Assembly: GCA_038124565.1 (NCBI GenBank)
Contig: JAYPCE010000003.1
Location: forward strand, 5,910-69,909
DNA from: Poseidonia sp.
GTDB taxonomy: Archaea; Thermoplasmatota; Poseidoniia; Poseidoniales; Poseidoniaceae
DNA: 64,000 nucleotides
Direction: 5' to 3'
Under the pieces are notes generated by a model. The model searched no databases. It was given only the letters and a program-made list of their open reading frames with translations, and had not been told where the DNA came from. Both the position numbers and the translations under genes were made by a program. Below are positions 2,243-17,584 of this stretch, piece by piece. Within the stretch, counting starts at the first letter, position 1; each line of letters starts with the position of its first letter.

Positions 2243-2343
2243 GATGCTTGGTGAGGGTTTTGCTTGTTCAACGCTTGCCTGTTTGGTATGCGAAGTTTTC
2301 GTCGCGGTCGTTGATGCAAAAGTGCGCGTATAGACAACAACCC

Positions 2344-2350
2344 TTTTATG
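2344..2350 (+). promoter_or_regulatory. Putative TATA box (ttttatg) ~26 nt upstream of ATG 2370, consistent with a leaderless transcript
   Basis: Spacing typical for archaeal TATA/TSS in leaderless mRNAs. Confidence 0.35.
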
Positions 2351-2369
2351 CACATGAGGATGGGAAATC

Positions 2370-5300
2370 ATGGCGAAAAACTCGGATTTGACATCACTTA
2401 ACCTCCGGACCTTTTCTTTGGTGTTGTGCGGCCTGATGTTGCTCTCAGCCATGCCCTTGGTGAGCGGCGCAGATTCCGATGGAGACGGGTTTGAAGACAG
2501 CGTTGATGACTGTCCATGGGCTTATGGAACATCGACCGTGGACAAGGATGGCTGTCCTGATCGTGACGGGGATGGCACGTCAGATGGAGCGGATGGTTGG
2601 ACCTCCAACAACCCAAATTTCAGCGAAGAATTTCACATCTCCAATCTCAATGCATACAGTATTGATCACAACGCTGACGGAACGCTTGCTGTCGCAGCCG
2701 TTGACGACCGTGTACGTATTTACAACGCTTCCACCTACACCACCGTTGTTTCCTCAGCCGACCTTGTTGATGGCAACAACGCCTACGTGACCAGCGTTGA
2801 CTGGAGCCCCGATGACATGTACGTCGCTGCGACCCTAACCGACGACACGGCCGTTGTCATGTGGGCGAGCAACCTCACGGTGATTCACGACGGCATCACG
2901 CATTCGGGCGATACCCGAACCTTCTCTGATGTCGCCTTCATGACCAACAGCACGTCGTTTGCTGTGGTGGACGAGAACGGTGGCGGCTGGGGCGGTGGAA
3001 ACTGCAACGGTTGTGCCGTGATGCTGGTGAGCGTGGAAGACGGCCAAATCTGGCGAGAGGTCAAGCCTGCAGGCAACAGCGGTTCGTATTCATCGGTCAC
3101 CTTTTCTCCAGACGGCAGCGTTATGGCCGTTGGTGGTGACGGCAATGCCTACCTCATTGAGACCAACAACTGGACCACGCTTCGAGCCCTCAATCCAGGA
3201 ACCGGGGAAAACGTCAACGGCATTGAGTTCTCACCGGATGGCACGATGGTGGGCTTGTGCACCCAAGCCAACATGAACGGCGCTCGCCTCCGAGCGTTCA
3301 ACACGGCGACGGGCGCTTCCATGCTCGACAAAACCTCCACGAGCTCATGCTATGGCGTTGATGTCTCTCCAGACAACACCCAAGTCGCCTACGCCATCGG
3401 CTACTACAGCACCGACGGGGGCTCGGTGCTGGTGTATGAACATACCACGGGCTTGTTGGTTGACCGCATCCAACTCGCACGCGGCAACAATGCGTGTTCG
3501 CAATTTGGTGGTCAGAATCCCTGCGGCGATGTGAACGGCGTTTCGTGGCATCCAGATGGGTACCACATCGTTGCTGCGGTTGACAGAAATTACGAGGGTG
3601 TGTACTTCCTGTTTGCTGATATCGACCCCGATAATGACGGTTACAACTCCACCGACCAGGGCGATGGTATCGTTGATGACTTCCCCGACGATGGCACCCA
3701 ATGGACCGATACGGACGGCGACGGCTACGGCGACAACCCAGCTCCAGCCAACCAACCCGATGCGTGCATCTCCGTCGCTGGTACGTCAACCGAAGACCGA
3801 TACGGATGCCCTGACGCTGACGGCGACGGATGGTCGGATGCCGGAGATTGGGCACCGTACAACCCCGACCAGTGGGTTGATGCTGATGGTGACGGCTACG
3901 GTGACAATTACCTGTACGAGGTAAATGAATACCAGTTCCATGTGAACCAGTCCGGTGATGCGTTCCCCAACGATGCAACCCAATGGAACGACACGGATGG
4001 CGACGGCTACGGTGACAATTACGAGAACGCCTCATGGACCTCCTATCGCCCAAGTGAATGGCCTGGCGTCTTGTTGACCTCAGCCAACGAACCAGACGCC
4101 TTCCCTCTTGACCGAACGCAGTACATGGACACAGATGGAGATTGGGTCGGCGACAACCCGAACAGCGATCGTGCTGATTTGTGCCCCAACCAATGGGGTG
4201 ATTCCCAGTACGACCGTCTCGGTTGTCCAGATGCTGACGGCGATGGGTACTCCGACCCCGATGCGGGGTGGCCAGCAACCACCGATTGCTTCGGAGCCGA
4301 TGCGTTCCCCGACGATCCTACGCAATGGTGCGATGAAGACAACGATGGATACGGGAGCAACGCCAACGGGAACAACCCCGATGATTGCCCTTCATCGGCC
4401 GGCACATCGTACATTGACCGAGCTGGTTGTGCCGACCGAGACGGCGATGGGTATTCCAACGCAGGCGACCCCTTCCCGGATGACCCAACGCAGTGGTCGG
4501 ACCGAGACGGCGATAACCGCGGCGACAACGCCAGCGGCAACAATCCCGACGCGTTCCCAGACGACACCTCGCAATGGAAGGACACCGACGGTGACGGTTA
4601 CGGCGACAATCCAGGAGGCAACAACGGGGACGCGTTCCCGACCGATTCGACGCAGTGGAGTGATGAGGACGGCGATGGCTACGGTGACAACGCTGAAGGA
4701 ACCGATGGAGACGTCTGCCCGATGGATTACGGTGAATCTCAGGAGCCCCTCAGCCGAGGATGTCCTGACAGCGATTTGGACGGCGTCACCGACCCGCTCG
4801 ATGCCTTCCCGAACGATCCTTTCCAGTGGGCCGATACCGATGGTGACGGCTATGGTGACAACACCAATGTCCCAAGCGGGGACGACTGTGTTGAAGAGTT
4901 TGGAAAATCGTTTGAAGAAGGTCGACAGGGTTGCCCCGACGCAGACTTGGACGGCTATGCTGATGTTGACGATGCCTTCCCAACCGACCACGAACAATGG
5001 GTGGACACCGATGGCGATGGCTATGGTGACAACTACTTCTGGGAGAACATCACGGTAGAAGATTCCGAAAACCCAGGCATGTTCATCACGTTGCGTGAAC
5101 AACGGGGCGACGCATTCCCCGATATTGCTTCGCAGTGGTCGGATATCGATGGTGATGGCTGGGGCGATAACACCAACAGTTCAAATCGCGTGGACAGTTT
5201 CCCGTTGCGCAACAGTCAATGGCTTGACTTTGACGGTGATGGCTTCGGCGATAATGTCACGGGTTACCAACCCGACATGTGTCAAAAAGTTCCCGGGACA

Positions 5301-5816
5301 TCAACTTCTGGCTTGGAGGAAGAATGGTATGGCTGTCCCGATGCTGATAGCGACGGTGTTGCCGATGATGCCGATGCCTGTCCATGGGACCCAGCATACT
5401 CGCTTGCGGCTGACAAGACCAAATGCACCATTACCAAAGATCCCAGTGCAAGCGGTAGCGAGGAGAACTCGGGCACCTTCTTGAGCGGAGAAACGAACAC
5501 CTTGGTCTGGATGGGCGGCGTGATTATCTTCATGCTCGCCCTCATCATCGTCGCTCAAGTTTCACGGGCTGCTGGAAAGCGCAAGGCGGTGGCGGCCAAG
5601 CGAGAGGAGATGATGGTCCAAGCCTCATTTGCCGAGGAAGAGGAACGCCGTCAAGCATGGATTCAGCATTACATTGCTGAAGGGAATTACGCCGAAGCCC
5701 GAGCCTTAGGGTGGGAAGGTACGGAAGGCTTGCCTGAGTGGAAACAATACGAGATGCAGCAGCAAGCCGCGCAAGAAGCAGCCATTCCCTCCATGTTGGA
5801 TTTGGACAGCCCCTAG
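2370..5816 (+). CDS. Large Ca-binding surface protein A: signal peptide, short N-terminal TSP3-like repeats, PD40/TolB-like beta-propeller, ~20 thrombospondin-type-3-like repeats, C-terminal TM anchor, conserved Trp-rich cytoplasmic tail
   Basis: N-terminus MAKNSDLTSLNLRTFSLVLCGLMLLSAMPLVSGA is signal-like. Blade motifs VDWSPDDMYVAAT, VTFSPDGSVMAVGG, IEFSPDGTMVGLC, VDVSPDNTQVAYA, VSWHPDGYHIVAA (SPDG signature). Repeats of form FPxDxTQWxDTDGDGYGDN / CPDADGDGWSD. TM LVWMGGVIIFMLALIIVAQV then tail ...RRQAWIQHYIAEGNYAEARALGWEGTEGLPEWKQYEMQQQ. Many N-x-S/T sequons. Confidence 0.9.
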   Translation: MAKNSDLTSLNLRTFSLVLCGLMLLSAMPLVSGADSDGDGFEDSVDDCPWAYGTSTVDKDGCPDRDGDGTSDGADGWTSNNPNFSEEFHISNLNAYSIDHNADGTLAVAAVDDRVRIYNASTYTTVVSSADLVDGNNAYVTSVDWSPDDMYVAATLTDDTAVVMWASNLTVIHDGITHSGDTRTFSDVAFMTNSTSFAVVDENGGGWGGGNCNGCAVMLVSVEDGQIWREVKPAGNSGSYSSVTFSPDGSVMAVGGDGNAYLIETNNWTTLRALNPGTGENVNGIEFSPDGTMVGLCTQANMNGARLRAFNTATGASMLDKTSTSSCYGVDVSPDNTQVAYAIGYYSTDGGSVLVYEHTTGLLVDRIQLARGNNACSQFGGQNPCGDVNGVSWHPDGYHIVAAVDRNYEGVYFLFADIDPDNDGYNSTDQGDGIVDDFPDDGTQWTDTDGDGYGDNPAPANQPDACISVAGTSTEDRYGCPDADGDGWSDAGDWAPYNPDQWVDADGDGYGDNYLYEVNEYQFHVNQSGDAFPNDATQWNDTDGDGYGDNYENASWTSYRPSEWPGVLLTSANEPDAFPLDRTQYMDTDGDWVGDNPNSDRADLCPNQWGDSQYDRLGCPDADGDGYSDPDAGWPATTDCFGADAFPDDPTQWCDEDNDGYGSNANGNNPDDCPSSAGTSYIDRAGCADRDGDGYSNAGDPFPDDPTQWSDRDGDNRGDNASGNNPDAFPDDTSQWKDTDGDGYGDNPGGNNGDAFPTDSTQWSDEDGDGYGDNAEGTDGDVCPMDYGESQEPLSRGCPDSDLDGVTDPLDAFPNDPFQWADTDGDGYGDNTNVPSGDDCVEEFGKSFEEGRQGCPDADLDGYADVDDAFPTDHEQWVDTDGDGYGDNYFWENITVEDSENPGMFITLREQRGDAFPDIASQWSDIDGDGWGDNTNSSNRVDSFPLRNSQWLDFDGDGFGDNVTGYQPDMCQKVPGTSTSGLEEEWYGCPDADSDGVADDADACPWDPAYSLAADKTKCTITKDPSASGSEENSGTFLSGETNTLVWMGGVIIFMLALIIVAQVSRAAGKRKAVAAKREEMMVQASFAEEEERRQAWIQHYIAEGNYAEARALGWEGTEGLPEWKQYEMQQQAAQEAAIPSMLDLDSP
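3597..5400 (+). repeat. Coding tandem array of thrombospondin-type-3-like calcium-binding repeats (D-x-D-x-D-G-x-x-D / QW-D-TDGDGYGDN) in protein A
   Basis: Repeated DTDGDGYGDN, DADGDGWSD, DRDGDGYSN, DEDNDGYGSN units visible in translation. Causes long antisense ORF artefacts (3298..4278, 4392..5102 etc). Confidence 0.85.
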
Positions 5817-5866: not shown

Positions 5867-8800
5867 ATGGTTCGCCTTCAAGCGGTCAGCATCATCTGCT
5901 TTCTGCTCCTGCAAACGGCGGTTCTACCCACGGCTGGAGCAGTGGATGCAGACGGCGATGGCATTGACGATGCATTGGATGACTGCCCCCACGCATCGGG
6001 CGATTCCACGGTGGATCGTCAAGGCTGCCCCGACAAAGACGGTGATGGGCGTTCGGACCTCAACGATGCATGGACTTCACGGTACCCAAGTTTCTCTCTT
6101 GATGCAACACTCACCGCGACGACCGATGTGTTTGATGCAGCCTATTCTCCTACGGGCGAGTTCGTTGCCATTCGTGAAAATCAATATGTGAAAATCTACA
6201 ACGTTTCTACCCAAACGTTGCTCCAGACCAGCGCTCAAATTTCGAGTTCGTGGTGGGGCAACCGCTTATCTTGGAGTCCCGATGGCACCATGCTCGCGGC
6301 CTCCATTTCCTCAGGCGTCAACATTTACTGGACCTCAAACCTCACCGAAATCCAAACGGCCATTGCCCCCACTGACCCAGGAACCGTGCGCGATGTGGCG
6401 TTTTTTCCCAATGGCAGCGGCTTCATTGCAGTAGGAGAAGGGTGGGGGTCCAACAGTGGGAAGGTCTACGCAGCCAATGCGGTGAACGGTACGATCTGGC
6501 ATTCCTTCCAACCCAACAACGAGTCGTCCTTCTCCTCCGTCGCCCTCTCTCCCGATGGAAGCCGTGCTGCAGTTGGCGGAGATGGCGTCGTTTATGTCAT
6601 CAACACCTCTTCGTGGCAGGTGACCCGAACCATCAACCATGGCTCACAAAATGTAAGGGGCGTGGATATTTCTCCCGACGGGAATTGGATCAGTGCCTGC
6701 GATGATACGGGGCTTGCCTACCAAAGCACAGTTCTTCGGGTCTGGGGCTTGGACAACGGGACCCAAGTCATGGCCAAAACCGGGACTTCCCGATGCAGCG
6801 AGACCCGGTTCTCACCTGATGGAAGTCAAGTAGGGTATTCCTTCCACTTTTACACCGATGACGCTGCATCGGTGACCATCTATCACATCAACTCGAATTC
6901 ATTGGTGACCCGCCTGAGTGCTCGGCCCACAGGCGACCCATGCACCGACACAACTGCGCCCCCGAATGTATGTGGGAGAATGTACGGGTTTGACTGGCAC
7001 CCCAACGGGTTGGACATTATCTCGGTGATGGGGCAAGACAACGAAGGCGTGTATTTCTGGTCGTCCAATTTGGACCCCGACAACGACGGGTGGAACACCT
7101 CCGACCAAGGGGACGGCAGAGTGGATGCCTTCCCCGATGAATCAACCCAATGGAACGACACAGATAGCGACGGGTACGGTGATAACCCTTCGCCAGCCTT
7201 CCAACCCGATGCTTGTCCGTCTGTTCAAGGAAATTCAACCGAGGACAGGTTTGGTTGTCCAGATGGCGATGGTGACGGTTGGTCGGATGCAGGCGACTGG
7301 GCGCCCAACGATGCTTTGCAGTGGCTTGACACTGATGGGGACGGTCATGGAGACAACTACCACTTTGAATTGGACGCCTATCAATTCCATCTCAACCAGA
7401 CCGGCGATGCCTTCCCCAACGATCCAACCCAGTGGAACGATACTGATGGTGACGGCTACGGGGATAACTTTGCGAATGCATCATGGACAACATACAGACC
7501 CGTAACATGGCCAGGAGAGTGGCTGAGCGTCGCTGTCATGCCAGATACTTTCCCCCTTGACCGTACGCAATGGAACGATACTGACGGAGATTGGTACGGT
7601 GACAACCAATTTGGCTCTCGTGTGGATGCGTGCCCTACCGAATGGGGCGATTCAGAAGTGGACCGCTTGGGTTGCAAGGATAGCGATGGGGACGGCTATT
7701 CTGACCCGACGATGGATTGGCCGGCTACCACAGATTGCTACGGGGCCGATGCTTTCCAAAACGATGCCACGCAGTGGTGTGATGAGGACAACGATGGGTT
7801 TGGTAGCAACCCCAACGGCAACACGCCCGATGATTGCCCGTCAACGGCAGGAACATCAACGATTGACCGATATGGTTGCGCAGACCGTGACGGCGATGGA
7901 TATTCCAACGCAGGTGACCCATTTCCCGATGACCCCACTCAATGGTCGGACCGAGACGGTGACAACCGCGGGGATAATGCCAGCGGAAACAACCCCGACG
8001 CTTTCCCTGACGACACCTCGCAATGGAAGGACAGCGACGATGATGGCTACGGAGACAACCCAGGAGGGACCAACGGAGACACATACCCAAATGACCCGAC
8101 CCAATGGAGCGATACAGACGGTGATGGATACGGCGACAATCCAAACGGAACTGAGGGCGATGTGTGTCCACTCGAATACGGCGAATCCTTTGATGAAGAC
8201 ACCCGGGGTTGTCCCGACAGCGATCTTGACGGTGTGACCGACCCGTTGGACGTGTTTCCCGATGACCCGTTCCAATGGGCCGATGCTGACGGTGATGGGT
8301 ACGGTGACAACACGAACGTACCGAGTGGTGATGCATGTGTTGAGGTCTTTGGGACCTCGACTGAAGCCGGTCGTTTAGGGTGTCCCGATAGCGATGTTGA
8401 CGGATATGCTGACCTTGATGATGCGTTCCCTAACGATCCTGAACAGTGGACGGACACCGATGGCGATGGTTACGGTGACAATTACTTCTGGGAAAACACC
8501 ACTGTAGAAGACAGCGAAAACCCTGGAATGTACATCACCCTGCGTGACCAGCGCGGTGACGCCTTCCCAGAGATCGCTACCCAATGGTCCGACATGGATG
8601 GTGACGGTTGGGGCGATAACGACAACAGCTCCAACCGAGTAGATAACTTCCCGCTCCGCGCTTCGCAATGGCTTGATTTTGACGGAGATGGGTACGGTGA
8701 CAATGCCGTGATGGGCGCCTATCAACCGGACGCTTGTCCGCTCGTTCCTGGGACATCGGTCACTGGTCTTGATGCGGTTTACTTCGGGTGTCCCGATGCT

Positions 8801-9268
8801 GATAACGACGGCGTTTCCGATGATGCAGACCAGTGCCCTTGGGACCCTATGTACGCCACCTTGGCTGACAAAGCGAAGTGCACCATTCTCTCCGACCCGA
8901 CCTTGATGTCAAACGAAGAATATGCAGATGACTTGGCCGGTGGCGGTAACTTGCTCCTGTACGTTGGCGGCATCATTGCGTTCTTGCTGGCCCTGAACAT
9001 CGTCGCCCAAGTCTCGCGGGCGGCTGGGGCGCGAAAAGCGGTCGCCACACGCGAAGAAGAAGAACGACTGAAAGCAGAAGCAAACGATGAGGAAGAGCGA
9101 CGCCAAGCATGGATTCAACATTATATCAGCCAAGGGAACTTTGCTGAAGCCAGAGCGCTAGGTTGGGAAGGTACCGAGGGGTTGCCTGAGTGGAAACACT
9201 ATGAAATGCAGCAACAAGAAGCCCAAGAAGCATCCATTCCTCAGATGTTTGACCTCGATAATCTGTGA
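5867..9268 (+). CDS. Large Ca-binding surface protein B (tandem paralog of A; ORF track start 5738 overlaps A, ATG 5867 MVRLQAVSIICFLLL... preferred)
   Basis: Same architecture as A. Propeller region is divergent (~30-35% identity by eye). Repeat stalk ~75% identical with a 50-aa block identical to A. TM LLLYVGGIIAFLLALNIVAQV and tail ...RRQAWIQHYISQGNFAEARALGWEGTEGLPEWKHYEMQQQ. Confidence 0.9.
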   Translation: MVRLQAVSIICFLLLQTAVLPTAGAVDADGDGIDDALDDCPHASGDSTVDRQGCPDKDGDGRSDLNDAWTSRYPSFSLDATLTATTDVFDAAYSPTGEFVAIRENQYVKIYNVSTQTLLQTSAQISSSWWGNRLSWSPDGTMLAASISSGVNIYWTSNLTEIQTAIAPTDPGTVRDVAFFPNGSGFIAVGEGWGSNSGKVYAANAVNGTIWHSFQPNNESSFSSVALSPDGSRAAVGGDGVVYVINTSSWQVTRTINHGSQNVRGVDISPDGNWISACDDTGLAYQSTVLRVWGLDNGTQVMAKTGTSRCSETRFSPDGSQVGYSFHFYTDDAASVTIYHINSNSLVTRLSARPTGDPCTDTTAPPNVCGRMYGFDWHPNGLDIISVMGQDNEGVYFWSSNLDPDNDGWNTSDQGDGRVDAFPDESTQWNDTDSDGYGDNPSPAFQPDACPSVQGNSTEDRFGCPDGDGDGWSDAGDWAPNDALQWLDTDGDGHGDNYHFELDAYQFHLNQTGDAFPNDPTQWNDTDGDGYGDNFANASWTTYRPVTWPGEWLSVAVMPDTFPLDRTQWNDTDGDWYGDNQFGSRVDACPTEWGDSEVDRLGCKDSDGDGYSDPTMDWPATTDCYGADAFQNDATQWCDEDNDGFGSNPNGNTPDDCPSTAGTSTIDRYGCADRDGDGYSNAGDPFPDDPTQWSDRDGDNRGDNASGNNPDAFPDDTSQWKDSDDDGYGDNPGGTNGDTYPNDPTQWSDTDGDGYGDNPNGTEGDVCPLEYGESFDEDTRGCPDSDLDGVTDPLDVFPDDPFQWADADGDGYGDNTNVPSGDACVEVFGTSTEAGRLGCPDSDVDGYADLDDAFPNDPEQWTDTDGDGYGDNYFWENTTVEDSENPGMYITLRDQRGDAFPEIATQWSDMDGDGWGDNDNSSNRVDNFPLRASQWLDFDGDGYGDNAVMGAYQPDACPLVPGTSVTGLDAVYFGCPDADNDGVSDDADQCPWDPMYATLADKAKCTILSDPTLMSNEEYADDLAGGGNLLLYVGGIIAFLLALNIVAQVSRAAGARKAVATREEEERLKAEANDEEERRQAWIQHYISQGNFAEARALGWEGTEGLPEWKHYEMQQQEAQEASIPQMFDLDNL
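7066..8850 (+). repeat. Coding tandem array of TSP3-like Ca-binding repeats in protein B
   Basis: As for protein A; antisense ORF artefacts 7725..8336, 7856..8275, 8047..8457, 8375..8725. Confidence 0.85.
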
Positions 9269-9325
9269 TTTTTACGCATGGTTTGCACCGCTGTCCTTTC
9301 AAAGGGGAAGCGACCATGTTTTCAC

Positions 9326-11899
9326 ATGGGCGAGAAGCCGACAGGCCGACTTTTGTTGGTGGCGGGGTTGCTTATGGCTTCCCTCTTGGTCGGTTTCGCT
9401 TCAGCTACGTTGAGCGATGTGCGCCTTGAAACCGAAGTGAGTGAGGCCCTCGGGCAGCCTTGGTACGATGCTGACCAACCCCTCGTCTTCACACCGACCA
9501 TGTACAATGATGGTGACACCGCCGTGACCGTTCCTATGAACCCGGATTGCCGTTTCGTGTTGAATGTTTACAACGAAAGCGGCGTCATGGTGGTCGACGG
9601 TGATGCGTTGTGCCCAGATAAAGAGCAAGGCCAAGACTTCTTTGCCGGAGAAAACCACACATTTGACGCCGTGGAATGGGGGATGAAAGATGCTGAGGGT
9701 GAATGGCTGCAAAGCGGCACCTACACGGTTGAATTGATGCATACCAAGACCGGCCTTACTCAACACGTTGTTGCCACGGTCCAAACACCGGTCACGCTTC
9801 CCGACGGGTTGACTTACTCAGTGGAATGGATGCAGCGAACGGCGGAGGCCGACGGTGCTTGGGTGGGCTTGGTCAGCCTGCACAACCCCACCGCCCAAGC
9901 GGTTGACCTTGACCTTCTTCCTGCGTGTTCGATGGAAGTCCGAATCGGTACAGAGTCTCGCCTTGGCGCCCCCTGCTTTGGAGAAGTTGAGACACTGATG
10001 CCCGGCGAAGTGATGCTCGTTGACCAACTGGTGGTTGCCTCACCCGAAACGCTGGATGTCCGCATTTCAACGCCCGGCAAGTCCTTTGTCCATGCACAAA
10101 CCTTGCAGGGCCTCACCGGGCCGATGGCGCTCCAAGCCACACCATCGCTTGCCCTCAACACCAACGAAGCACGGGCCTTCGGCCAGGGCGATGTTCTCGT
10201 CAGTGAACTTCTGTTGACCAGCACCAGCCTCGAAGACCAAACGATGGCCTTCACATCCACATGCAAGGCAGAACTTTGGGTGCTCGACGATTTGGGTCAT
10301 GTGGTGTTCGACTCACGCGCTGACAAAACGTGTCAGACCATTGAGCTCGAAGATTCACTCAAAGCCGACTCTCCCATGACCTTTACATTGCCACAATGGG
10401 GCTTCTTTGACAACGATGGCTGCCGTGTTCAGCCGGGAACCTACACCGTTGTCGCTGAACTCCCTGAATTCAACCTCGCCACCCTGCAGACGGTGGAGTA
10501 CAGAGATGCCGAGGCCAATCCTTGCACCTCGTCCTCTTCGCTGACATTGGAGGCGACTTCGTCGTGGTTGGATGAAGACACCTTGCAGGTCAGCACGGTG
10601 ATGTCCAACGAAGGCGATGCTCACTATCTTCGGATGGTACAACCGTGCACTTACGCGTTGGACTTTGTTGACACCTCGGGCGTCTCGGTTCACCGGTTCC
10701 AAGCCCTGTGCGGCGAATACGATGGACGCAAGGTGTTTGTTCCCAGCGGTGCAGCGGCCTTGATGTTTGATGTGCTTGAGGTGGAGATGGTGCAAAACGG
10801 TCAGCCATTGCTACCCGATGGCTTCTACACCCTTGAGGTCACCATGTTCGCCTCGTCCGATGTGGTCGCCACCATCGACCTTGCTTGGCCTGAAACCTTC
10901 ACGGAGGACGTGAATACCGAACCCGAAGAAGAACAACCCGTCCTCAATTCATACGAACTTACTGGCACTTGGATGGGACTCTTGACCGAGACCGGCACAT
11001 GCTATGTGATGGAAGTCGGCGACTCCACAGTTTTGCTCTCCCACGCACGAACCCTGCCTTCCTGGACGCCAAACGGTGCTGTGCAAGGTATCTACGAAGT
11101 CGTAGACACGACCCCTTCGCCTGCGTGTGCCACCTTTTCCGCACCTTCCGTTGAAGTGGTGGAGGTCTTGATGGAACAACCTCTTGCTCAAGAACAACAG
11201 GAATCGGTTGCAGAGACGGTGCTGGTGGAAGAAGACCCTGAGGTGGCGATTGACCCCGTGGTTCCGGTTGTGACGGTGATTGTGACGGCTTCAGTGCTCT
11301 CCATCTTGGGTATCGTGGTGGCCACGAACGAAGGGTTGAGGCTACCGGCCACCATGGCTGGCTTGTGGTTCATCGGCCTGTTGGGCAAAACGCATGAGAC
11401 CACCGACGGGCGGTATCAGCGAGGCCGATTGATGGGGTACCTCACGGCCAATCCGGGCTGTCACTTCCGTGCCTTGATGAGTGCCCTTGACATGAGCAAT
11501 GGACAAATTACGCATCATTTGCGAGTACTGGAAGCCGAAGAAAACGTGTGGCGAAAGAACGATGGACGCTTGGTTCGCTATTACCCGCTGACCAACCAGT
11601 TGCATCCAAACACCGCTGACGATGACCTTCCTGTACCGCCGCTTTCACCAGACCCGAACAGTCTGCAGGGCAAGATCTTGAATCTGCTCGACCACGACGG
11701 GGAATTGGGTCAATTCCCGACCCAAGCAGAATTGGCCAAGCGTCTTGAGAAGAGCCAGCAATTGATTTCTCACCACCTGCGAACATTGCAGAAGTATGGT
11801 TTGGTTGAACGGCGAAAGATGGGCGTGATGAATCGCTACAAGTTGACTCGCGAAGCCATCTTCCTGCTCGAGACAAGCGATGATTTCGGCCAAAACTGA
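9326..11899 (+). CDS. Single-pass membrane protein: signal peptide, four Cys-paired extracellular beta-sandwich-like repeats, TM, two cytoplasmic winged-HTH (ArsR/MarR-like) domains; putative membrane-tethered transcription regulator (ORF track start 9278)
   Basis: MGEKPTGRLLLVAGLLMASLLVGFASA signal. Four repeats each with a Cys pair (NPDCRF...ALCPD; LPACSMEV...APCFGEV; TSTCKAEL...DKTCQTIEL; VQPCTYAL...QALCGEY). TM VVPVVTVIVTASVLSILGIVVA. Two wHTH units: RGRLMGYLTANPGCHFRALMSALDMSNGQITHHLRVLEAEENVWRKNDGRLVRYYPLT and QGKILNLLDHDGELGQFPTQAELAKRLEKSQQLISHHLRTLQKYGLVERRKMGVMNRYKLT. Confidence 0.85.
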   Translation: MGEKPTGRLLLVAGLLMASLLVGFASATLSDVRLETEVSEALGQPWYDADQPLVFTPTMYNDGDTAVTVPMNPDCRFVLNVYNESGVMVVDGDALCPDKEQGQDFFAGENHTFDAVEWGMKDAEGEWLQSGTYTVELMHTKTGLTQHVVATVQTPVTLPDGLTYSVEWMQRTAEADGAWVGLVSLHNPTAQAVDLDLLPACSMEVRIGTESRLGAPCFGEVETLMPGEVMLVDQLVVASPETLDVRISTPGKSFVHAQTLQGLTGPMALQATPSLALNTNEARAFGQGDVLVSELLLTSTSLEDQTMAFTSTCKAELWVLDDLGHVVFDSRADKTCQTIELEDSLKADSPMTFTLPQWGFFDNDGCRVQPGTYTVVAELPEFNLATLQTVEYRDAEANPCTSSSSLTLEATSSWLDEDTLQVSTVMSNEGDAHYLRMVQPCTYALDFVDTSGVSVHRFQALCGEYDGRKVFVPSGAAALMFDVLEVEMVQNGQPLLPDGFYTLEVTMFASSDVVATIDLAWPETFTEDVNTEPEEEQPVLNSYELTGTWMGLLTETGTCYVMEVGDSTVLLSHARTLPSWTPNGAVQGIYEVVDTTPSPACATFSAPSVEVVEVLMEQPLAQEQQESVAETVLVEEDPEVAIDPVVPVVTVIVTASVLSILGIVVATNEGLRLPATMAGLWFIGLLGKTHETTDGRYQRGRLMGYLTANPGCHFRALMSALDMSNGQITHHLRVLEAEENVWRKNDGRLVRYYPLTNQLHPNTADDDLPVPPLSPDPNSLQGKILNLLDHDGELGQFPTQAELAKRLEKSQQLISHHLRTLQKYGLVERRKMGVMNRYKLTREAIFLLETSDDFGQN

Positions 11900-11996
11900 A
11901 GGGCGTCGTTCTTTGACCCATTGGTGCGAATGTCAAGCGTGGCTTTCATAGCGTGTTGTTGAGTGGGAGGCCTTGTCCAGTGGACGGTGAACGCCC

Positions 11997-14822
11997 ATGT
12001 CAACCGAACTCAAGGCCGTTGACGAGGTGGGCTGGCAGCAAAAATGGGCAGATGCGAAACTGTTTGACGCTGAGATTCGCGAAGGCCGCCCTTCCTTTTA
12101 CTGCCTTGAGATGTACCCTTACCCATCTGGAAAAATGCACATGGGGCATGTTCGTAATTATTCCATCGGGGACGCGGTAGCCCGGTTTAAGCGCATGATG
12201 GGCTTTGATGTGCTCTACCCGATGGGCTACGACTCCTTTGGTATGCCAGCCGAAAACGCAGCCATCTCCGAGGGAGGCCATCCCCACGACATCACAGAGC
12301 GAAACATGGCCTCCATCACCGCCCAAATCAAGCGTATGGGGTTCTCGTACGACTGGCGCCGAACCCTCAAGAGTCACGACCCACGCTATTACAAGTGGAA
12401 CCAGTGGTTTTTCACCAAATTCATGGAAAAAGGGTTGGCGCGCAGAGAGAGTGCACCAGTGAACTGGTGCGAGGATTGTGTCACCGTTTTGGCCAATGAG
12501 CAAGTAAAGGCAGGTCGCTGCTGGCGCTGCAATGGACCTGTGTTGCAGAAAACCATGAGTCAATGGTTCCTCGATCTACCCGCATACGGCCAAGAACTGT
12601 ACGATGGGCTTGACACGATTGCGTTTCCCGAGAACGTCAAGTCGCTCCAGCAAGATTGGCTTGGCCGTTCGGAAGGTGCGAACATTCGCTTTGCTATCGC
12701 TGGACAAGACGCCAGCATCGAGGTTTACACCACACGGCCAGATACATTGTTTGGCGCCACCTTTGTCACCCTTGCTCCCGAACACCCCATGGCGGCTGAA
12801 TTGGTCGCAGGCAGCGAACACGAAGAGGCATGGCGTGAGTTGCACGACGAAGTCGTCAGCATGTCGGAATTTGACCGTATCAAGAACATGAACAAGAAGA
12901 AAGGTGTCTTTTCAGGCCGGTACGCCATTCACCCCTTGACCGGTGATGAAGTGCCGATTTGGTTTGGTAATTTCGTCATCGCCACCTACGGAACGGGGGC
13001 AGTGATGGCCGTTCCTGCACACGATGAGCGTGACTTTGAGTTTGCGAGTGCCTACGGTATCCCCATCCCCAGAGTCTTGGTGATGGCCGAACATGGTGAT
13101 GCTGATGCGCCCATGGAGCGGGCGGAAACCGAACTCGGATGGATGGTGAACAGCCCGCTCGAGGGCTTTGACGGTCTGTACGGCCAAGAGGCCAAGGATG
13201 CTGTTTGCGCAGCGCTGGAAAAGGCCGGCTGTGGTGAGCAAACCGTGAATTGGAAAATACGCCCTTGGTTGCTCTCTCGGCAACGCTACTGGGGCACACC
13301 CATCCCGGTCATCCACTGCAAAGATTGCGGTGCCGTTCCCGTACCTGAGAAGGATTTGCCTGTAGAACTTCCCCGCGATGTGGTGTTCGGTCAAGGAAAC
13401 CCTCTGGAAACTTCGTTGTCTTTTGTCCACGCACCTTGCCCCTCTTGTGGTGCAGATGCACGCCGTGAAACCGATACCATGGACACCTTCATGGATTCTT
13501 CATGGTACTTCCTGCGCTACACCGACGCCCTCAACGATGACCGGCCGTTTGACCAAGCCATTGCCGACCATTGGATGCAAGTGGACTTCTATTGCGGGGG
13601 TATTGAACACGCTCAGATGCACTTGATTTACGCCCGCTTCATGACCAAAGCTCTGCGAGATTTGGGCTTGGTCAACGTGGATGAACCGTTTCATGAATTG
13701 CTCTGCCAAGGCATGGTCAACAAATCGGCGCCGTTTTGTGCCGCTTGCGGTGTGACGCTGTCGGTCGCTCATGCAGGCGCTCCCTGCCCCCATTGTGACG
13801 GCGAATTGGGCACCCGCTCTGCCAAAATGAGCAAATCCCTAGGCAACACCGTTTCGCCTGAAGACATGATTGAGCGGTTCGGAGCGGACACCGTGCGCTT
13901 GTTCATTCTCTTTGCAGCCAACCCCACGGCAGGCATGGATTGGTCCGACACGGCCTTGGAGGCCAATCATCGCGTGATGCTTCAACTCCAAACCATGCCC
14001 GCACAGATTTTGGCTTGGCCAGAAGCCTCCACGCCAATGGATGCATGGATGGAAACCCGTTTTACACAACGCGTCCATGAATTCGTTGCAGCCATGGAGG
14101 CGTACGACTTACGTCGGGCTGTTGAAATCAGCCATTACGACATCATCAAGGACATCAACTGGTATGTCCGTAGAGGCGGTGGCTGTCGAAGCATCGCTGA
14201 CTGGATGCTACCATTGTGGTCTCAACTTCTTTCTGTCTCCACTCCGCATCTGGCCGAAGAGTGGTGGGATGGACTGAACGCCACCTCTGGCTTTGTCTCT
14301 GCGAGTTCACTCGCCCTACCATCTCCTCTTGACGACGATGCGCTGGTGCGCCTCGCCTCTGAACAGTACATTCGAGATGTCCTGGAACAGGCTCGTAAAG
14401 TCCATGTCGTGGCCGAGCGGCATTTGGGTGCGCCGGCCACTGAGGCCACGTTCGTCGTTGCCCCTGCTTGGAAACGCGACATGGCACAGGCTGCTTTGGC
14501 GTTCATCGCAGAGGGAGGGCATCCGAAGCAATTCATGCCGGTCCTGCAGGCGATGCCGATGGCTCAAGGCGAACGAAAAGAGGAAATCATCGGTCATTGG
14601 GCCAAGAAGATGTTGCCTCAGGTCTTCAAGTGGGACGACGCCTCCAGAGAAGTGGTTTCCTCATCGATGAACGAGGCCGATGTGCTGTCGCAGGCATCGG
14701 CATTTATCGCAGCCGAATTAAATCTCCAAGCCGTTCATGTTGTGGTTGGCGAGAGTGATGAAGACACAACCGAACGTGCATCTTCAGCCATGCCGCTGGC
14801 ACCCAGCATCATCTATGGCTGA
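11997..14822 (+). CDS. leuS: Leucyl-tRNA synthetase (archaeal/eukaryal type)
   Basis: HIGH motif HMGHVRNYSIGD, KMSKS motif KMSKSLGN, CP1 editing region and zinc-binding CxxC pairs; 941 aa. Confidence 0.97.
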   Translation: MSTELKAVDEVGWQQKWADAKLFDAEIREGRPSFYCLEMYPYPSGKMHMGHVRNYSIGDAVARFKRMMGFDVLYPMGYDSFGMPAENAAISEGGHPHDITERNMASITAQIKRMGFSYDWRRTLKSHDPRYYKWNQWFFTKFMEKGLARRESAPVNWCEDCVTVLANEQVKAGRCWRCNGPVLQKTMSQWFLDLPAYGQELYDGLDTIAFPENVKSLQQDWLGRSEGANIRFAIAGQDASIEVYTTRPDTLFGATFVTLAPEHPMAAELVAGSEHEEAWRELHDEVVSMSEFDRIKNMNKKKGVFSGRYAIHPLTGDEVPIWFGNFVIATYGTGAVMAVPAHDERDFEFASAYGIPIPRVLVMAEHGDADAPMERAETELGWMVNSPLEGFDGLYGQEAKDAVCAALEKAGCGEQTVNWKIRPWLLSRQRYWGTPIPVIHCKDCGAVPVPEKDLPVELPRDVVFGQGNPLETSLSFVHAPCPSCGADARRETDTMDTFMDSSWYFLRYTDALNDDRPFDQAIADHWMQVDFYCGGIEHAQMHLIYARFMTKALRDLGLVNVDEPFHELLCQGMVNKSAPFCAACGVTLSVAHAGAPCPHCDGELGTRSAKMSKSLGNTVSPEDMIERFGADTVRLFILFAANPTAGMDWSDTALEANHRVMLQLQTMPAQILAWPEASTPMDAWMETRFTQRVHEFVAAMEAYDLRRAVEISHYDIIKDINWYVRRGGGCRSIADWMLPLWSQLLSVSTPHLAEEWWDGLNATSGFVSASSLALPSPLDDDALVRLASEQYIRDVLEQARKVHVVAERHLGAPATEATFVVAPAWKRDMAQAALAFIAEGGHPKQFMPVLQAMPMAQGERKEEIIGHWAKKMLPQVFKWDDASREVVSSSMNEADVLSQASAFIAAELNLQAVHVVVGESDEDTTERASSAMPLAPSIIYG

Positions 14823-17489
14823 TCATTCGGCTTCATCAATGGATGCCGGGCGTGGCGGAGGGATCTTTGTGACCGTATCAAGCGGTGGACCTGGCCGTTG
14901 GTTATTGGTGTAGATGGCCAGCCCAACAACCACCAAGGCAAGCAAGAACAGCCATCCAGCAAGCCCCCAACCCTCGTCCTCTGTGTTGGATGAAGGGGAA
15001 AGACCGCTGGCGTCACACCCTTGTTGGTCCACAACGGCATTGGCTGCTGAATTCAGACAGAAGTCATAGGCATTGACCACACCGTCACCATCGTCATCCA
15101 GTTGGAATTGACTGCATCCATTCGATGAAATTTGGTCTGCTGGGTCCGAGCGCGGACATTCATCCAACGGGTCAAGCACCCCGTCTTGGTCGTCATCATC
15201 GTCCTCCACGGCATCAATGCAGCCGTCACCGTCCATGTCCTGACCGGCTTGCGCAACGCCAAGCATTCCTTTCGGACATCGGTCAACGCCGTCCAGTACC
15301 CCATCGTTGTCGTCGTCGCCGTCTTCGGTAGCGTCAGCACATCCGTCGTTATCGTGGTCCATGGAGGCAGCATCAGCGATCCAATTTTTCGCACCAAGCG
15401 GGCACGCATCATCAACATCCAACACGCCATCGTCATCGTCGTCTTCATCCATTGTCTCGTCCATACAACCGTCCCGGTCGTAATCGTTCAAGTTGATTGA
15501 AATCCACGGCGTGAGGTCGTTGGGGCAATTGTCATCGGGAATGGTAATCCCGTCCCCGTCTTTATCGGCATCACAGAGGTCACCGATGCCATCGTTGTCC
15601 AAATCGGCTTGGGTGGGGTTGGCTACAGCAGGACAATTGTCTGCCTGGTCCACGAACCCGTCGCCGTCAGCGTCAATATCCGCACAACCATCGGCCTCAA
15701 TGTCGTTCTCTTCATCGGAAATCCAACCAACGGGGCCTTTGGGACACAGGTCGTTGGTGTCAAAGATACCATCTTCATCATCATCCAAATCTTCGGTCGC
15801 GTCTCGGCATCCATCGCCGTCGTGGTCTGAGTTACTGTTGGCCAGCCAACCGACTTCGCCGCTCGGGCAATCGTCGTTCAGGTCGGCAACCCCGTCGCCA
15901 TCATCGTCGTCGTCGCACTCGTCACCAAAGGCATCTCCATCCAAGTTGGCTTGGTCAGGGTTGGCCAGTTTCGGACAATTGTCAACACCGTCCAGCACCC
16001 CATCCAAATCAAGGTCGGTTTCGTACAACCAAACGCCCATGTCAAGTTGATTGCGTTGGTCAAAGGTGTGTCCGCCATACGTACCGTCAGCGTTCGCATT
16101 GAAGGCGACCACAGGTGAACCCGTGGCGCTGAAGATCAAGTCCGTAGCGAGGTCGTTACCTGGACCCCCACCAGAGATGGCCCAGTCCCACGCTCCGCTG
16201 GCTTGGCGTTGGGCAAGGAACACATCGAAGTGGTTTCCATCGTTGATGCCATCGATATCGGTCAATGTGTATTCACCCAAGATGATGCTCCCCGTGGTTT
16301 CTCCGACCACGACGGTATCGCCTTGGTCCGAGACGTGAACGTCTTTCACGCGGTCGGCTCCGTTCCCACCGAATCCAGCGGCATGCAACCATTCGCCCGA
16401 AGGAGAGAGATGCGCTTCGTAGAAATCAATCCAAACGGCATCATCAACGGCATGTACACCAAATGTGAGGTTCTGCAAATAATCCCCGACCACACTGATG
16501 CCGCCTCCGGGCCGTCCGGCGCAGGCGACCGCCGTGGTGTCATCAGACCCGCCTGCTTGGGCTACCCACTGCCAACTTGCCGTTGAATAACTGCCCACAG
16601 CTACGTTGAGCCCGCCGGTGCTGTTGACCTCATGTTCACCAAAAATCACCATGTCCATGAAACTTGTAGCAAAGTAAGTTTGGCCAGTGGTGTCTTTGCA
16701 CAAGGAACCGGTGTCGTCCAGCGCTTGGGTGGAAAAGACGGTGTGGAGGCCAATCAAACTCCCTTGGTCGTCCATCATCAACAAAGCCACCGCCTCTTGA
16801 GTAACGCTGGCGGGAGAGGTGAGGTTGTTAACGACGAGTTCACCACGGTGCAAGACGGCCAGATGGATCTCATCGTTTTGCGTGACCATAAGGTCAACCA
16901 CCATCATTTGGTAGGGGTTGGAAAAGGATGTGGCCCAAACCCACTCACCGTTGGGTGTCATGGTCGCCAAAAACACGGCGTTTTCGTCGTCGTTAGCGCT
17001 TTTGTTGATGGGGTCAAGGTCGCCAAGTGTCAGGTTGCACGGGTCGCCTAGCGTCATGTCACAATAGGTTCCAGCGACAACGATGGTGCCGTCGCTCAGC
17101 GCTGCCATGGCGGCAATGTTGTCCAAGCCGGAACTGCTGCCGTTGGCGCTGTAGCTCCAATTCCCTTCTTCATCAATCCAACCGATGAAGAAATCAACGC
17201 CAAATGATGAATCCTCGCTTGAGAATCCGATAACATCGCCATCGAAGGCTATGTTTTGTTCAAACGAACCGGCCACGATGATGGAGCCGTTTGAAAGCGG
17301 GACCATGGAGGACACTTGTTCGCTACTTGACCCACTTGCACTGGCCAGCCAACCTGAGGTGTTTTCTTCCCCGGTCAACAGAGGGCCGTCGTTATTGAGG
17401 GTCACTGCATCGCCGTACTGAACCAGCGGCATAGTGGAAAATCCAAGCAGGGCTGCCGCCAAGAGGACATGGAGCACCGTAAAGCGCAT
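14823..17489 (-). CDS. Large Ca-binding surface protein C: signal peptide, beta-propeller-like N-terminal region, TSP3-like repeat array, C-terminal TM anchor (ORF track start 17537; ATG 17489 MRFTVLHVLLAAALLG preferred)
   Basis: Repeats DLDLDGVLDGVDNCPKLANPDQANLDGDAFGDECDDDDDGDGVADLNDDCP... in canonical TSP3 form (D-x-D-x-D-G-x-x-D-x-x-D-N-C-P). TM GWLFLLALVVVGLAIY. Short P-rich tail. Stop codon abuts leuS stop (convergent). Confidence 0.9.
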   Translation of the reverse strand: MRFTVLHVLLAAALLGFSTMPLVQYGDAVTLNNDGPLLTGEENTSGWLASASGSSSEQVSSMVPLSNGSIIVAGSFEQNIAFDGDVIGFSSEDSSFGVDFFIGWIDEEGNWSYSANGSSSGLDNIAAMAALSDGTIVVAGTYCDMTLGDPCNLTLGDLDPINKSANDDENAVFLATMTPNGEWVWATSFSNPYQMMVVDLMVTQNDEIHLAVLHRGELVVNNLTSPASVTQEAVALLMMDDQGSLIGLHTVFSTQALDDTGSLCKDTTGQTYFATSFMDMVIFGEHEVNSTGGLNVAVGSYSTASWQWVAQAGGSDDTTAVACAGRPGGGISVVGDYLQNLTFGVHAVDDAVWIDFYEAHLSPSGEWLHAAGFGGNGADRVKDVHVSDQGDTVVVGETTGSIILGEYTLTDIDGINDGNHFDVFLAQRQASGAWDWAISGGGPGNDLATDLIFSATGSPVVAFNANADGTYGGHTFDQRNQLDMGVWLYETDLDLDGVLDGVDNCPKLANPDQANLDGDAFGDECDDDDDGDGVADLNDDCPSGEVGWLANSNSDHDGDGCRDATEDLDDDEDGIFDTNDLCPKGPVGWISDEENDIEADGCADIDADGDGFVDQADNCPAVANPTQADLDNDGIGDLCDADKDGDGITIPDDNCPNDLTPWISINLNDYDRDGCMDETMDEDDDDDGVLDVDDACPLGAKNWIADAASMDHDNDGCADATEDGDDDNDGVLDGVDRCPKGMLGVAQAGQDMDGDGCIDAVEDDDDDQDGVLDPLDECPRSDPADQISSNGCSQFQLDDDGDGVVNAYDFCLNSAANAVVDQQGCDASGLSPSSNTEDEGWGLAGWLFLLALVVVGLAIYTNNQRPGPPLDTVTKIPPPRPASIDEAE
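15140..16130 (-). repeat. Coding TSP3-like Ca-binding repeat array in protein C
   Basis: Consecutive D-x-D-x-D-G-x-x-D...C-P units; produces antisense ORFs 15132..15500, 15493..16050. Confidence 0.8.
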
Positions 17490-17584
17490 GCCTTTGGATA
17501 GAAGTCCTGCATAAGAACCTCGCGTGCTGGCGTGCATCCACCTACGGGGGAGGCTTCATTGAGTGTCGCCGATGCAATCCTCTC

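Follow-up and report, generated by a model that had tools for sequence, protein, structure and literature searches.

The gene studied here lies at positions 9326-11899 on the forward strand of a 64,000-nucleotide stretch of Poseidonia sp. DNA (the window, that is, the whole stretch analysed, whose positions serve as coordinates below) and encodes a product of 857 amino acids (aa). From the N-terminus, the predicted protein consists of a signal peptide, an ectodomain of ~618 aa, one transmembrane (TM) helix, a juxtamembrane helix, a winged helix-turn-helix (wHTH) domain of family PF24266 and a second wHTH domain of the ArsR/SmtB type. These predicted domains give good support to the central reading, in which outer sensor domains are attached to a membrane-tethered transcription factor. 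The fuller explanation favoured here, and held with moderate confidence, is that the protein works as a one-component transcription regulator of type-I topology, spanning the membrane once and binding DNA while anchored there. The automatic database annotation of the product reads "ArsR family transcriptional regulator [Poseidonia sp.]". The DNA of the window is archaeal chromosomal and includes the large subunits of DNA polymerase D and primase as well as cytochrome oxidase.

The longest open reading frame (ORF) at the site, 9278-11899 (+), spans 873 aa. The true start is almost certainly the ATG at 9326, giving the 857-aa protein, because homologs begin at this second ATG (the start MGEKP/MGER is common to 77 of 77 database homologs) and because the 16 codons that the longer ORF adds are part of a conserved non-coding element. 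The 873-aa ORF is ruled out as the gene on these grounds. An earlier reading of this DNA, made from the letters only and called the original prediction below, had the coordinates 9326-11899 right; its length of 873 aa is that of the maximal ORF. The element and the parts of the gene are as follows.

9272-9305 (+), conserved non-coding element before the start codon, TTACGCATGGTTTGCACCGCTGTCCTTTCAAAGG, aligned in 65 orthologous loci
9326-9406 (+), signal peptide, aa 1-27 (MGEKPTGR-LLLVAGLLMASLLVGF-ASA), at the hydropathy peak of aa 5-32
9413-9793 (+), D1, aa 30-156, immunoglobulin (Ig)-like beta sandwich with Cys75-Cys96; all beta in the AlphaFold2 (AF2) model, with a predicted local distance difference test score (pLDDT) of 86-94
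9794-10123 (+), D2, aa 157-266, shorter beta sandwich with Cys201-Cys217; AF2 pLDDT ~73-91
10124-10513 (+), D3, aa 267-396, BsuPI-like Ig fold with Cys313-Cys336 and Cys366-Cys400; from Pfam and AF2
10523-10894 (+), D4, aa 400-523, Ig-like, with Cys441-Cys462; from AF2 and an HHalign match of D1 to D4 (96%)
10895-10945 (+), acidic linker, aa 524-540; pLDDT <50 for aa 529-539, mean pairwise identity 22%
10946-11185 (+), D5, aa 541-620, membrane-proximal beta domain with Cys559-Cys601; AF2 pLDDT ~67-84
11186-11260 (+), acidic stalk, aa 621-645; mean pairwise identity 21%
11261-11326 (+), TM helix, aa 646-667; Kyte-Doolittle peak 2.67, helix in the AF2 C-terminal model
11327-11395 (+), juxtamembrane segment, aa 668-690: N-E-x-L-R-x-P, an apolar helix of 14-15 residues (LPATMAGLWFIGLL), then K-T-H-E-T
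11396-11596 (+), wHTH1, aa 691-757, HVO_0163-N type, recognition helix SNGQITHHLRVL; PF24266, E 6e-14
11597-11662 (+), Pro-rich acidic inter-domain linker, aa 758-779 (ending in DDDLPVPPLSPDPNSL); low pLDDT
11663-11899 (+), wHTH2 with C-terminal helix, aa 780-857, and the stop codon; ArsR/SmtB type, recognition helix SQQLISHHLRTL

Two AF2 models cover the cytoplasmic part. In the first, of full length, this part receives a pLDDT of 30-50, and orthologs are nearly invariant there. The second is confined to the C-terminal 222 aa and uses an alignment of 14 divergent relatives, and here both wHTH domains exceed a pLDDT of 90. The wHTH1 domain has the arrangement H-H-H-beta-beta, aligns with PDB entry 5duk at E 3e-6, and matches PF24266 (HTH_HVO_0163_N) over aa 698-755 with 52.3 bits against a cut-off of 31; the same family appears in the precomputed annotation of every full-length homolog. 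In wHTH2, the region of ~aa 780-830 is matched by the Pfam families HTH_5, HTH_24 and MarR_2, with PF01022 (HTH_5) scoring 41.1 bits against a cut-off of 22, and the NCBIfam ArsR/SmtB model NF033788 is passed at 56.9 against 55. Foldseek superposes the fold on SmtB (1r23) with a root-mean-square deviation of 1.6 Å over 75 columns and on CzrA with 1.9-2.9 Å, CadC also being among these superpositions at 1.6-2.9 Å. With the Staphylococcus aureus CadC, wHTH2 aligns almost residue for residue along the recognition helix and the wing (SHHLRTL.K.G.V..RK.G). Both the profile score above the cut-off and the winged-helix fold place the domain in the ArsR/SmtB family.

The two recognition helices each carry S/T-H-H-L-R, and the wings are basic. 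The ArsR signature S-x-x-x-S/T-H-H/Q-L is present as SNGQITHHL in wHTH1 and SQQLISHHL in wHTH2 and is invariant in 33 homologs. The metal and metalloid sites of the family (CXC in alpha3; D/H-x-H-x10-H-x2-E in alpha5) are found in neither domain. The cytoplasmic part contains a single Cys (C712), replaced by A, V, I, M or T in relatives, and the C-terminal helix TREAIFLLETSDDF has no His, so that the canonical ArsR metal sites cannot form.

Hydropathy reveals just two TM-grade peaks in the protein, at aa 5-32 and aa 639-671. The first belongs to the signal peptide, which has the n-h-c layout of the Sec type and ends in A-S-A; the motif A/S-S-A is kept in the 33 homologs, and the peptide is probably cleaved. 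The ectodomain (aa 28-645) is acidic, and its Cys residues fall into the pairs 75/96, 201/217, 313/336, 366/400, 441/462 and 559/601. All 12 of the 12 are invariant among the 33 homologs, whose overall identity falls as low as 41%. The AF2 model resolves the ectodomain into five all-beta domains, mostly with confidence (pLDDT 80-94), and their Foldseek matches are multi-domain chains built of macroglobulin, Ig and fibronectin type III domains, among them complement C5, alpha-2-macroglobulin and RbmA. HHalign finds D1 homologous to D3 (95%) as well as to D4; D2 gives a weak but in-register match to D1 and D3, and no match is found between D5 and D1-D4. Within D3, aa 288-379 match Pfam PF12690 (BsuPI) at E 2.5e-7, with 31.0 bits against a cut-off of 22.9, and this score, together with the beta-sandwich fold, makes the domain a member of the BsuPI-like/Ig-like group. 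Regional conservation, expressed throughout as mean pairwise identity over 33 orthologs, is lowest among the globular regions in D2 (39%) and highest within the ectodomain in D5 (55%).

The TM helix is flanked by strongly unequal charges. The 20 residues before it (aa 626-645) carry a mean net charge of -4.4 over the 33 homologs, and lysine and arginine number 5 in aa 667-705 versus a mean of 0.85 in aa 606-645. The charge pattern follows the positive-inside rule, with the acidic flank outside and the basic flank inside. The composition of the chain divides in the same place, the ectodomain having an isoelectric point (pI) of 4.05 and 12 paired Cys, and the wHTH domains a pI of ~9.1 each (9.05 for wHTH1) and one Cys together. 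The juxtamembrane segment (identity 83%) is helical in the AF2 model, and its apolar helix is not amphipathic (hydrophobic moment 0.04-0.10). In other family members the apolar stretch comprises 9-16 residues, and it is absent in 6 of 62, in which the wHTH module is still conserved. Because some family members have no second hydrophobic segment, the juxtamembrane helix is most likely not a membrane crossing; it is probably half-inserted in the inner leaflet, which leaves the protein single-pass. The charge distribution, the division in Cys and pI and the relatives lacking a second hydrophobic segment, all of them sequence data, point to an ectodomain outside the cell and a C-terminus inside. 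At the cytoplasmic TM end, the motif N/S/T-E-x-L/I-R/K, often followed by x-P (aa 668-674, nucleotides 11327-11347), is near-invariant across the superfamily.

The original prediction's observation of this protein design is confirmed. The two ArsR/MarR-like wHTH domains that it placed in the cytoplasm after the TM helix are recovered by profile (PF24266, HTH_5 and NF033788) and by fold; the hydrophobic segment at aa 646-667 is a TM helix by its Kyte-Doolittle peak, so the protein is not wholly secreted; and the ~620 aa placed outside correspond to the ~618 aa of the ectodomain. The proposed one-component design, in which an outer sensor is joined through one TM helix to predicted cytoplasmic wHTH domains, is supported by profile, fold and hydropathy. 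Its four ~120-aa Cys-paired repeats with an acidic linker are essentially right and appear in the AF2 model as beta-sandwich domains, D1, D3 and D4 being homologous by HHalign; the fifth domain, D5, and the second Cys pair of D3 had been missed.

Among the Poseidoniales (Marine Group II archaea) the gene is a single-copy core gene. With each GTDB species represented by one genome, a scan seeded with a 5-sequence alignment returned 256 relatives, and the figures for species loci given here rest on the best 80 of these 256. All 80 come from metagenome-assembled genomes (MAGs) of Poseidoniales, and in 80 of 80 the ortholog occupies the same place in the syntenic order. The ectodomain with all five of its domains can be recognised from end to end in ~25 clusters at 50% identity. 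Conservation differs sharply along the chain: the wHTH domains are 93% (wHTH1) and 92% (wHTH2) identical across orthologs versus 39-55% for D1-D5, the TM helix stands at 52% and the acidic linkers at 21-22%. The inter-domain linker, despite its low pLDDT, reaches 81%.

The output module extends far beyond these orthologs. An exhaustive HMMER search with aa 641-857 as the query gives E<1e-10 for 318 representative clusters; the TM helix and tandem-wHTH module forms the C-terminal end of these proteins, which are 200-1463 aa long. One profile search gave mostly fragments of the same ortholog group; a second profile, built from divergent members, returned 814 clusters. Informatively named matches are all from Poseidoniales, Thalassarchaeaceae, "Euryarchaeota" MAGs or Thermoplasmatota. 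Common to the wider family are the TM helix, E-x-x-R/K, a short apolar helix and the tandem wHTH, and the N-terminal regions are unrelated to the present one, consisting of thrombospondin repeats, beta-helix-like repeats or acidic low-complexity segments. An abundant subfamily of ~270-300 aa (P0357, P0371, P0425, P0431 and P0473) has the same TM helix, juxtamembrane helix and tandem wHTH; outside it carries only an N-terminal hydrophobic segment and an acidic low-complexity loop of 60-80 aa, and it seems to have no sensor domain. Ectodomains that vary while the output module stays constant mark a receptor or signal-transduction family, and the protein belongs to such a lineage-expanded receptor family, with fixed output and varied ectodomain.

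Directly before the start codon, ~35 nucleotides show 90-99% column conservation in 65 orthologous Poseidoniales loci, whatever the upstream gene. The consensus is TTACRCAY-N4-TGYACCGCTKNNCTTTCAAR, and its 18-nucleotide core GNACCGCTKNNCTTTCAA occurs once in the window and, in 74 of 91 loci, exactly once, before this gene. More distant orthologs have only a loose version of the element, and paralogs are without it. The position of TTTCAAA (9297-9303, or -29 to -23 from the ATG) fits an archaeal TATA box and suggests a leaderless mRNA, and the 20 nucleotides upstream of it could be a B recognition element, an operator or both. The element is most simply a promoter, with a possible autoregulatory operator. 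A similar conserved sequence, ATTCAAAG, lies in the LeuRS promoter. An upstream RNA element is not upheld, no Rfam family matching the sequence. A direct-repeat operator TTRCAC-N5-TTGCAC likewise finds no backing and survives as no more than a weak lead: the window contains 10 matches versus 13 expected, and the half-sites vary at different positions.

In the mechanism proposed, cleavage of the signal peptide would leave five disulfide-stabilised Ig-like domains projecting from the cell, and the TM and juxtamembrane helices would hold the two basic wHTH domains at the inner face of the membrane. Both wHTH domains of one chain would probably act as a pseudo-dimer on two adjacent DNA half-sites while the protein is still in the membrane. 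A ligand or surface contact of the ectodomain may change oligomerisation or the position of the TM and juxtamembrane helices, and with it DNA binding. The element at 9272-9305 may serve autoregulation. Four observations weigh against this account. The C-terminal AF2 model has a predicted template modelling score of 0.42, so the relative orientation of wHTH1 and wHTH2 is not fixed; the fold matches of the tandem wHTH include the protein-binding adaptors ScpB, ESCRT-II, RPC62 and TFIIIC; the 14-15-residue apolar segment of orthologs reaches the lower limit of membrane-spanning length; and the upstream element, found solely at its own gene, is perhaps a mere promoter.

The gene stands in a conserved order: a STAND-ATPase (-), a WD40 membrane protein (+), the regulator (+), LeuRS (+), a thrombospondin-type-3 (TSP3) protein (-) and TPD (+), beyond which lie a GHMP kinase and then RNA polymerase and ribosomal genes. 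Loci with 43-60% identity keep this order, as do the 80 species loci. The features of the neighbourhood that bear on the argument are these.

2370-5816 and, from the likely start, 5867-9268 (+), tandem WD40 paralogs; from Pfam, 61% identity
9080-9934 in locus L087, 2746-3543 in locus L091 and in 18 of the species loci L007-L086 (-), insertions of a metallo-beta-lactamase-fold gene

Each WD40 paralog is a membrane protein of type I that combines a signal peptide, a WD40 beta-propeller, Ca-binding repeats of thrombospondin type 3, one C-terminal TM helix and a conserved cytoplasmic tail of ~85 aa with the motif ...EERRQAWIQHYI..GN.AEARALGWEGTEGLPEWK...IP.M.DL.NL. The gene is duplicated in the window and single-copy upstream of the regulator in orthologous loci with gene calls. 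The tail was considered as an exceptionally conserved docking peptide and rejected, being 74% identical versus 70-85% for the repeat region. In 18 of the 80 species, within one Poseidoniales sub-lineage, the metallo-beta-lactamase-fold gene lies on the opposite strand between the WD40 gene and the regulator. In locus L088, from an unrelated, GC-rich genome, tandem paralogs of the regulator family occupy 10001-12559 and 12582-15179; directly upstream of them lie a thrombospondin-repeat protein of 987 aa and a protein of 1263 aa without Pfam match.

What had been said of these neighbours fares unevenly. The conservation of the neighbourhood holds, the same order recurring in the 80 species loci, and the two upstream surface-protein genes are true paralogs. 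The TSP3 protein (14823-17537; given earlier as 14823-17489) is not a third paralog: it shares with them the thrombospondin-type-3 repeats alone (E~1e-4), and LeuRS stands between it and the regulator. Because LeuRS, RNA polymerase and ribosomal genes share the block, its conservation is general synteny.

Further observations concern other genes of the window. The STAND/AAA_16 NTPase at 689-2452 (-), whose start is probably at ~2242, has a weak N-terminal Crp-like HTH and is divergent from the WD40 gene; it occupies the same position in orthologous loci, with 516-615 aa, and is a candidate regulator of the surface-protein gene. LeuRS (11997-14822, +) scores as bacterial-type, with 849 bits for TIGR00396 versus 276 bits for the archaeal TIGR00395. 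At 57420-62714 (-), a very large putative surface or adhesion protein of 1764 aa contains PA14 and Laminin_G_3 (concanavalin-like lectin) domains.

Other explanations place the same parts in different roles. The protein may be an adhesin or envelope protein and no gene regulator, its tandem winged-helix module being a structural adaptor that tethers the nucleoid non-specifically or docks a cytoplasmic protein, possibly the WD40-protein tail. Such a role would suit a single-copy core gene within a housekeeping syntenic block, an Ig-like ectodomain that resembles adhesin and macroglobulin domain chains, and top two-domain fold matches that bind protein or RNA (TFIIIC, RPC62, ESCRT-II, ScpB and SelB); a simple regulator would not usually be near-invariant throughout its cytoplasmic part and in the linker as well. 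However, both wHTH domains keep the DNA-reading helix of ArsR proteins with its basic wing, wHTH2 matches the CadC helix, the pI of each is ~9, and varied ectodomains joined to one constant module are typical of signal transduction, not of structural tethers. We therefore regard a purely structural role as improbable.

The regulator may also form a co-component system with the adjacent WD40/thrombospondin-repeat protein, as in ToxR-ToxS and TcpP-TcpH, and control the neighbouring surface genes. This is compatible with a membrane-bound one-component regulator, to which it adds a partner and targets. Wherever the contig extends far enough, nearly every Poseidoniales species locus has the WD40 gene upstream, the L088 paralogs stand beside large thrombospondin-repeat and unassigned surface proteins, and partners are known for several membrane regulators (PMC10269533). 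Against these points, LeuRS is an equally constant neighbour, which indicates synteny and not an operon; in 18 of 80 species the opposite-strand gene separates the two; a promoter element of its own belongs to the regulator and is absent from the neighbours; the family paralogs P0120 and P0133 have unrelated neighbours; and the WD40 cytoplasmic tail is no more conserved than the repeat region. A partnership of this kind thus seems unlikely, and the sensing/adhesion module that the original prediction drew from the gene order gives way to housekeeping synteny, with insertions, a separate cis element and paralogs in unrelated contexts.

At its widest, the family, defined by the TM helix, juxtamembrane helix and tandem wHTH and confined to Poseidoniales and marine Thermoplasmatota, could be the main surface-to-transcription route of these archaea, a receptor superfamily of single-chain ArsR pseudo-dimers with hundreds of interchangeable ectodomains. 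This extension is doubtful; if true, the superfamily couples cell-surface events directly to transcription in globally abundant archaea. In its furthest version, the output would proceed by proteolytic release, as an archaeal Notch-like circuit.

Release by regulated intramembrane proteolysis, of the Notch, SREBP or RseA kind, would have an ectodomain signal lead to cleavage and to a soluble tandem-wHTH fragment. The type-I layout with a C-terminal effector resembles Notch, the poorly conserved acidic stalks at aa 524-540 and 621-645 could be shedding sites, and the near-invariant N/S-E-x-L-R-x-P places helix-breaking residues at the cytoplasmic TM end. However, neither the conserved block nor the set of 16 window ORFs covered by the Pfam scan contains a site-2, rhomboid or other protease gene. 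A freed fragment would be kept at the membrane by the hydrophobic juxtamembrane helix, and the conserved juxtamembrane and linker segments fit mechanical coupling at least as well. A nuclear envelope is absent from prokaryotes, and the membrane regulators characterised so far act without leaving the membrane (PMC10269533). The proteolytic circuit raised in the original prediction is accordingly not borne out: neither a protease in the block and scanned ORFs nor a cleavage signature is seen, release is unneeded in a cell without a nucleus, and the reading is a decidedly weak contender.

A two-pass hairpin, in which the juxtamembrane helix would be a second TM segment and the wHTH domains would be extracellular and unable to bind chromosomal DNA, draws on the 14-15-residue non-amphipathic apolar run of orthologs and on the AF2 helix directly after the TM helix, but is very improbable given basic residues on both sides of the segment (the next 19 residues carry net +2), its reduction to 9-13 residues or loss in relatives with a homologous wHTH module, and a wHTH part with one Cys and a pI of ~9 versus an ectodomain with a pI of 4 and 12 paired Cys.

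As a probable type-I regulator acting from the membrane, the protein is chiefly of value for opening a way into the study of sensing in an abundant, uncultured lineage. In the surface ocean the Poseidoniales rank with the most abundant archaea; they have never been cultured, and their environmental sensing is almost unstudied. A core single-copy receptor-regulator, with relatives that share its output module, offers a concrete and clonable handle on this process: the 169-aa cytoplasmic fragment can be expressed for mapping DNA targets on metagenomic DNA, and the ectodomains can be screened for ligands. The protein also provides the sparsely characterised class of membrane-bound regulators with a well-defined archaeal example of type-I topology and tandem ArsR-type domains.

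Among known systems, the soluble ArsR/SmtB proteins (SmtB, CzrA, CadC of pI258 and HlyU) include wHTH2 as a family member by profile and fold. They form homodimers, are ~100-120 aa long and use Cys/His sites to sense metals, whereas wHTH2 is one of two domains in a membrane protein and is without the canonical metal sites. The first domain, well above the PF24266 cut-off, is of the type of HVO_0163, an 'ArsR-type' protein of Haloferax volcanii that increases under hypochlorite stress (PMC10294847). No report linking PF24266 to membrane receptors was found in the literature.

The predicted design of one component, a single membrane pass, an outer sensor and a winged-helix DNA-binding domain in the cytoplasm is shared with ToxR, CadC and TcpP. 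Cysteines of the outer domain matter in ToxR and CadC. In ToxR and CadC, however, the DNA-binding domain is N-terminal and the sensor C-terminal; this order is reversed here, as the original prediction had stated, the wHTH domains being C-terminal. They also carry one OmpR-type Trans_reg_C domain in place of two ArsR-type domains, and their periplasmic domains are small and not homologous to the ~618-aa Ig-like ectodomain. A Pfam scan of the regulator gives no match to Trans_reg_C, which sets the protein outside the ToxR/CadC type. Notch shares the type-I layout, a disulfide-rich multi-domain ectodomain and a C-terminal transcriptional effector; Notch, SREBP and ATF6 differ in requiring proteolytic release to reach the nucleus and have no homology to the regulator.

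The closest class is that of the transmembrane transcription regulators (TTRs), defined by at least one predicted TM region combined with a DNA-binding domain, likewise predicted, both of which are present here (aa 646-667; two wHTH). The census of Demey et al. (2023) counts 50,302 TTRs, 1,384 of them archaeal; 56% are single-pass, and HTH_5 accounts for 0.33% of entries (PMC10269533). In the searchable part of the census files, no Poseidoniales were found (PMC10269533). Location in the membrane without release is established for regulators of bacteria and archaea (PMC10269533; ArnR/ArnR1 in PMC13286277). ArnR and ArnR1 of Sulfolobus acidocaldarius, experimentally studied membrane-bound activators of the archaellum (cited in PMC13286277), are archaeal membrane-anchored HTH regulators like the present one; ArnR differs in having the HTH in its N-terminal region and no large ectodomain, and is crenarchaeal and not related. 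The original prediction knew of no described archaeal regulator with such an architecture. The class itself is already known, with the 1,384 archaeal TTRs and ArnR/ArnR1; for this particular family and architecture, no published work was found in the literature. In conclusion, the protein resembles TTRs in joining a single TM helix and DNA-binding domains in one polypeptide without a phosphorelay domain and presumably in acting on DNA from the membrane, and it differs from those of the census in its N-terminal multi-Ig ectodomain, its tandem C-terminal wHTH domains and its conserved hydrophobic juxtamembrane helix; it is an uncharacterised variant of the membrane-bound one-component regulators and no new kind of system or principle.

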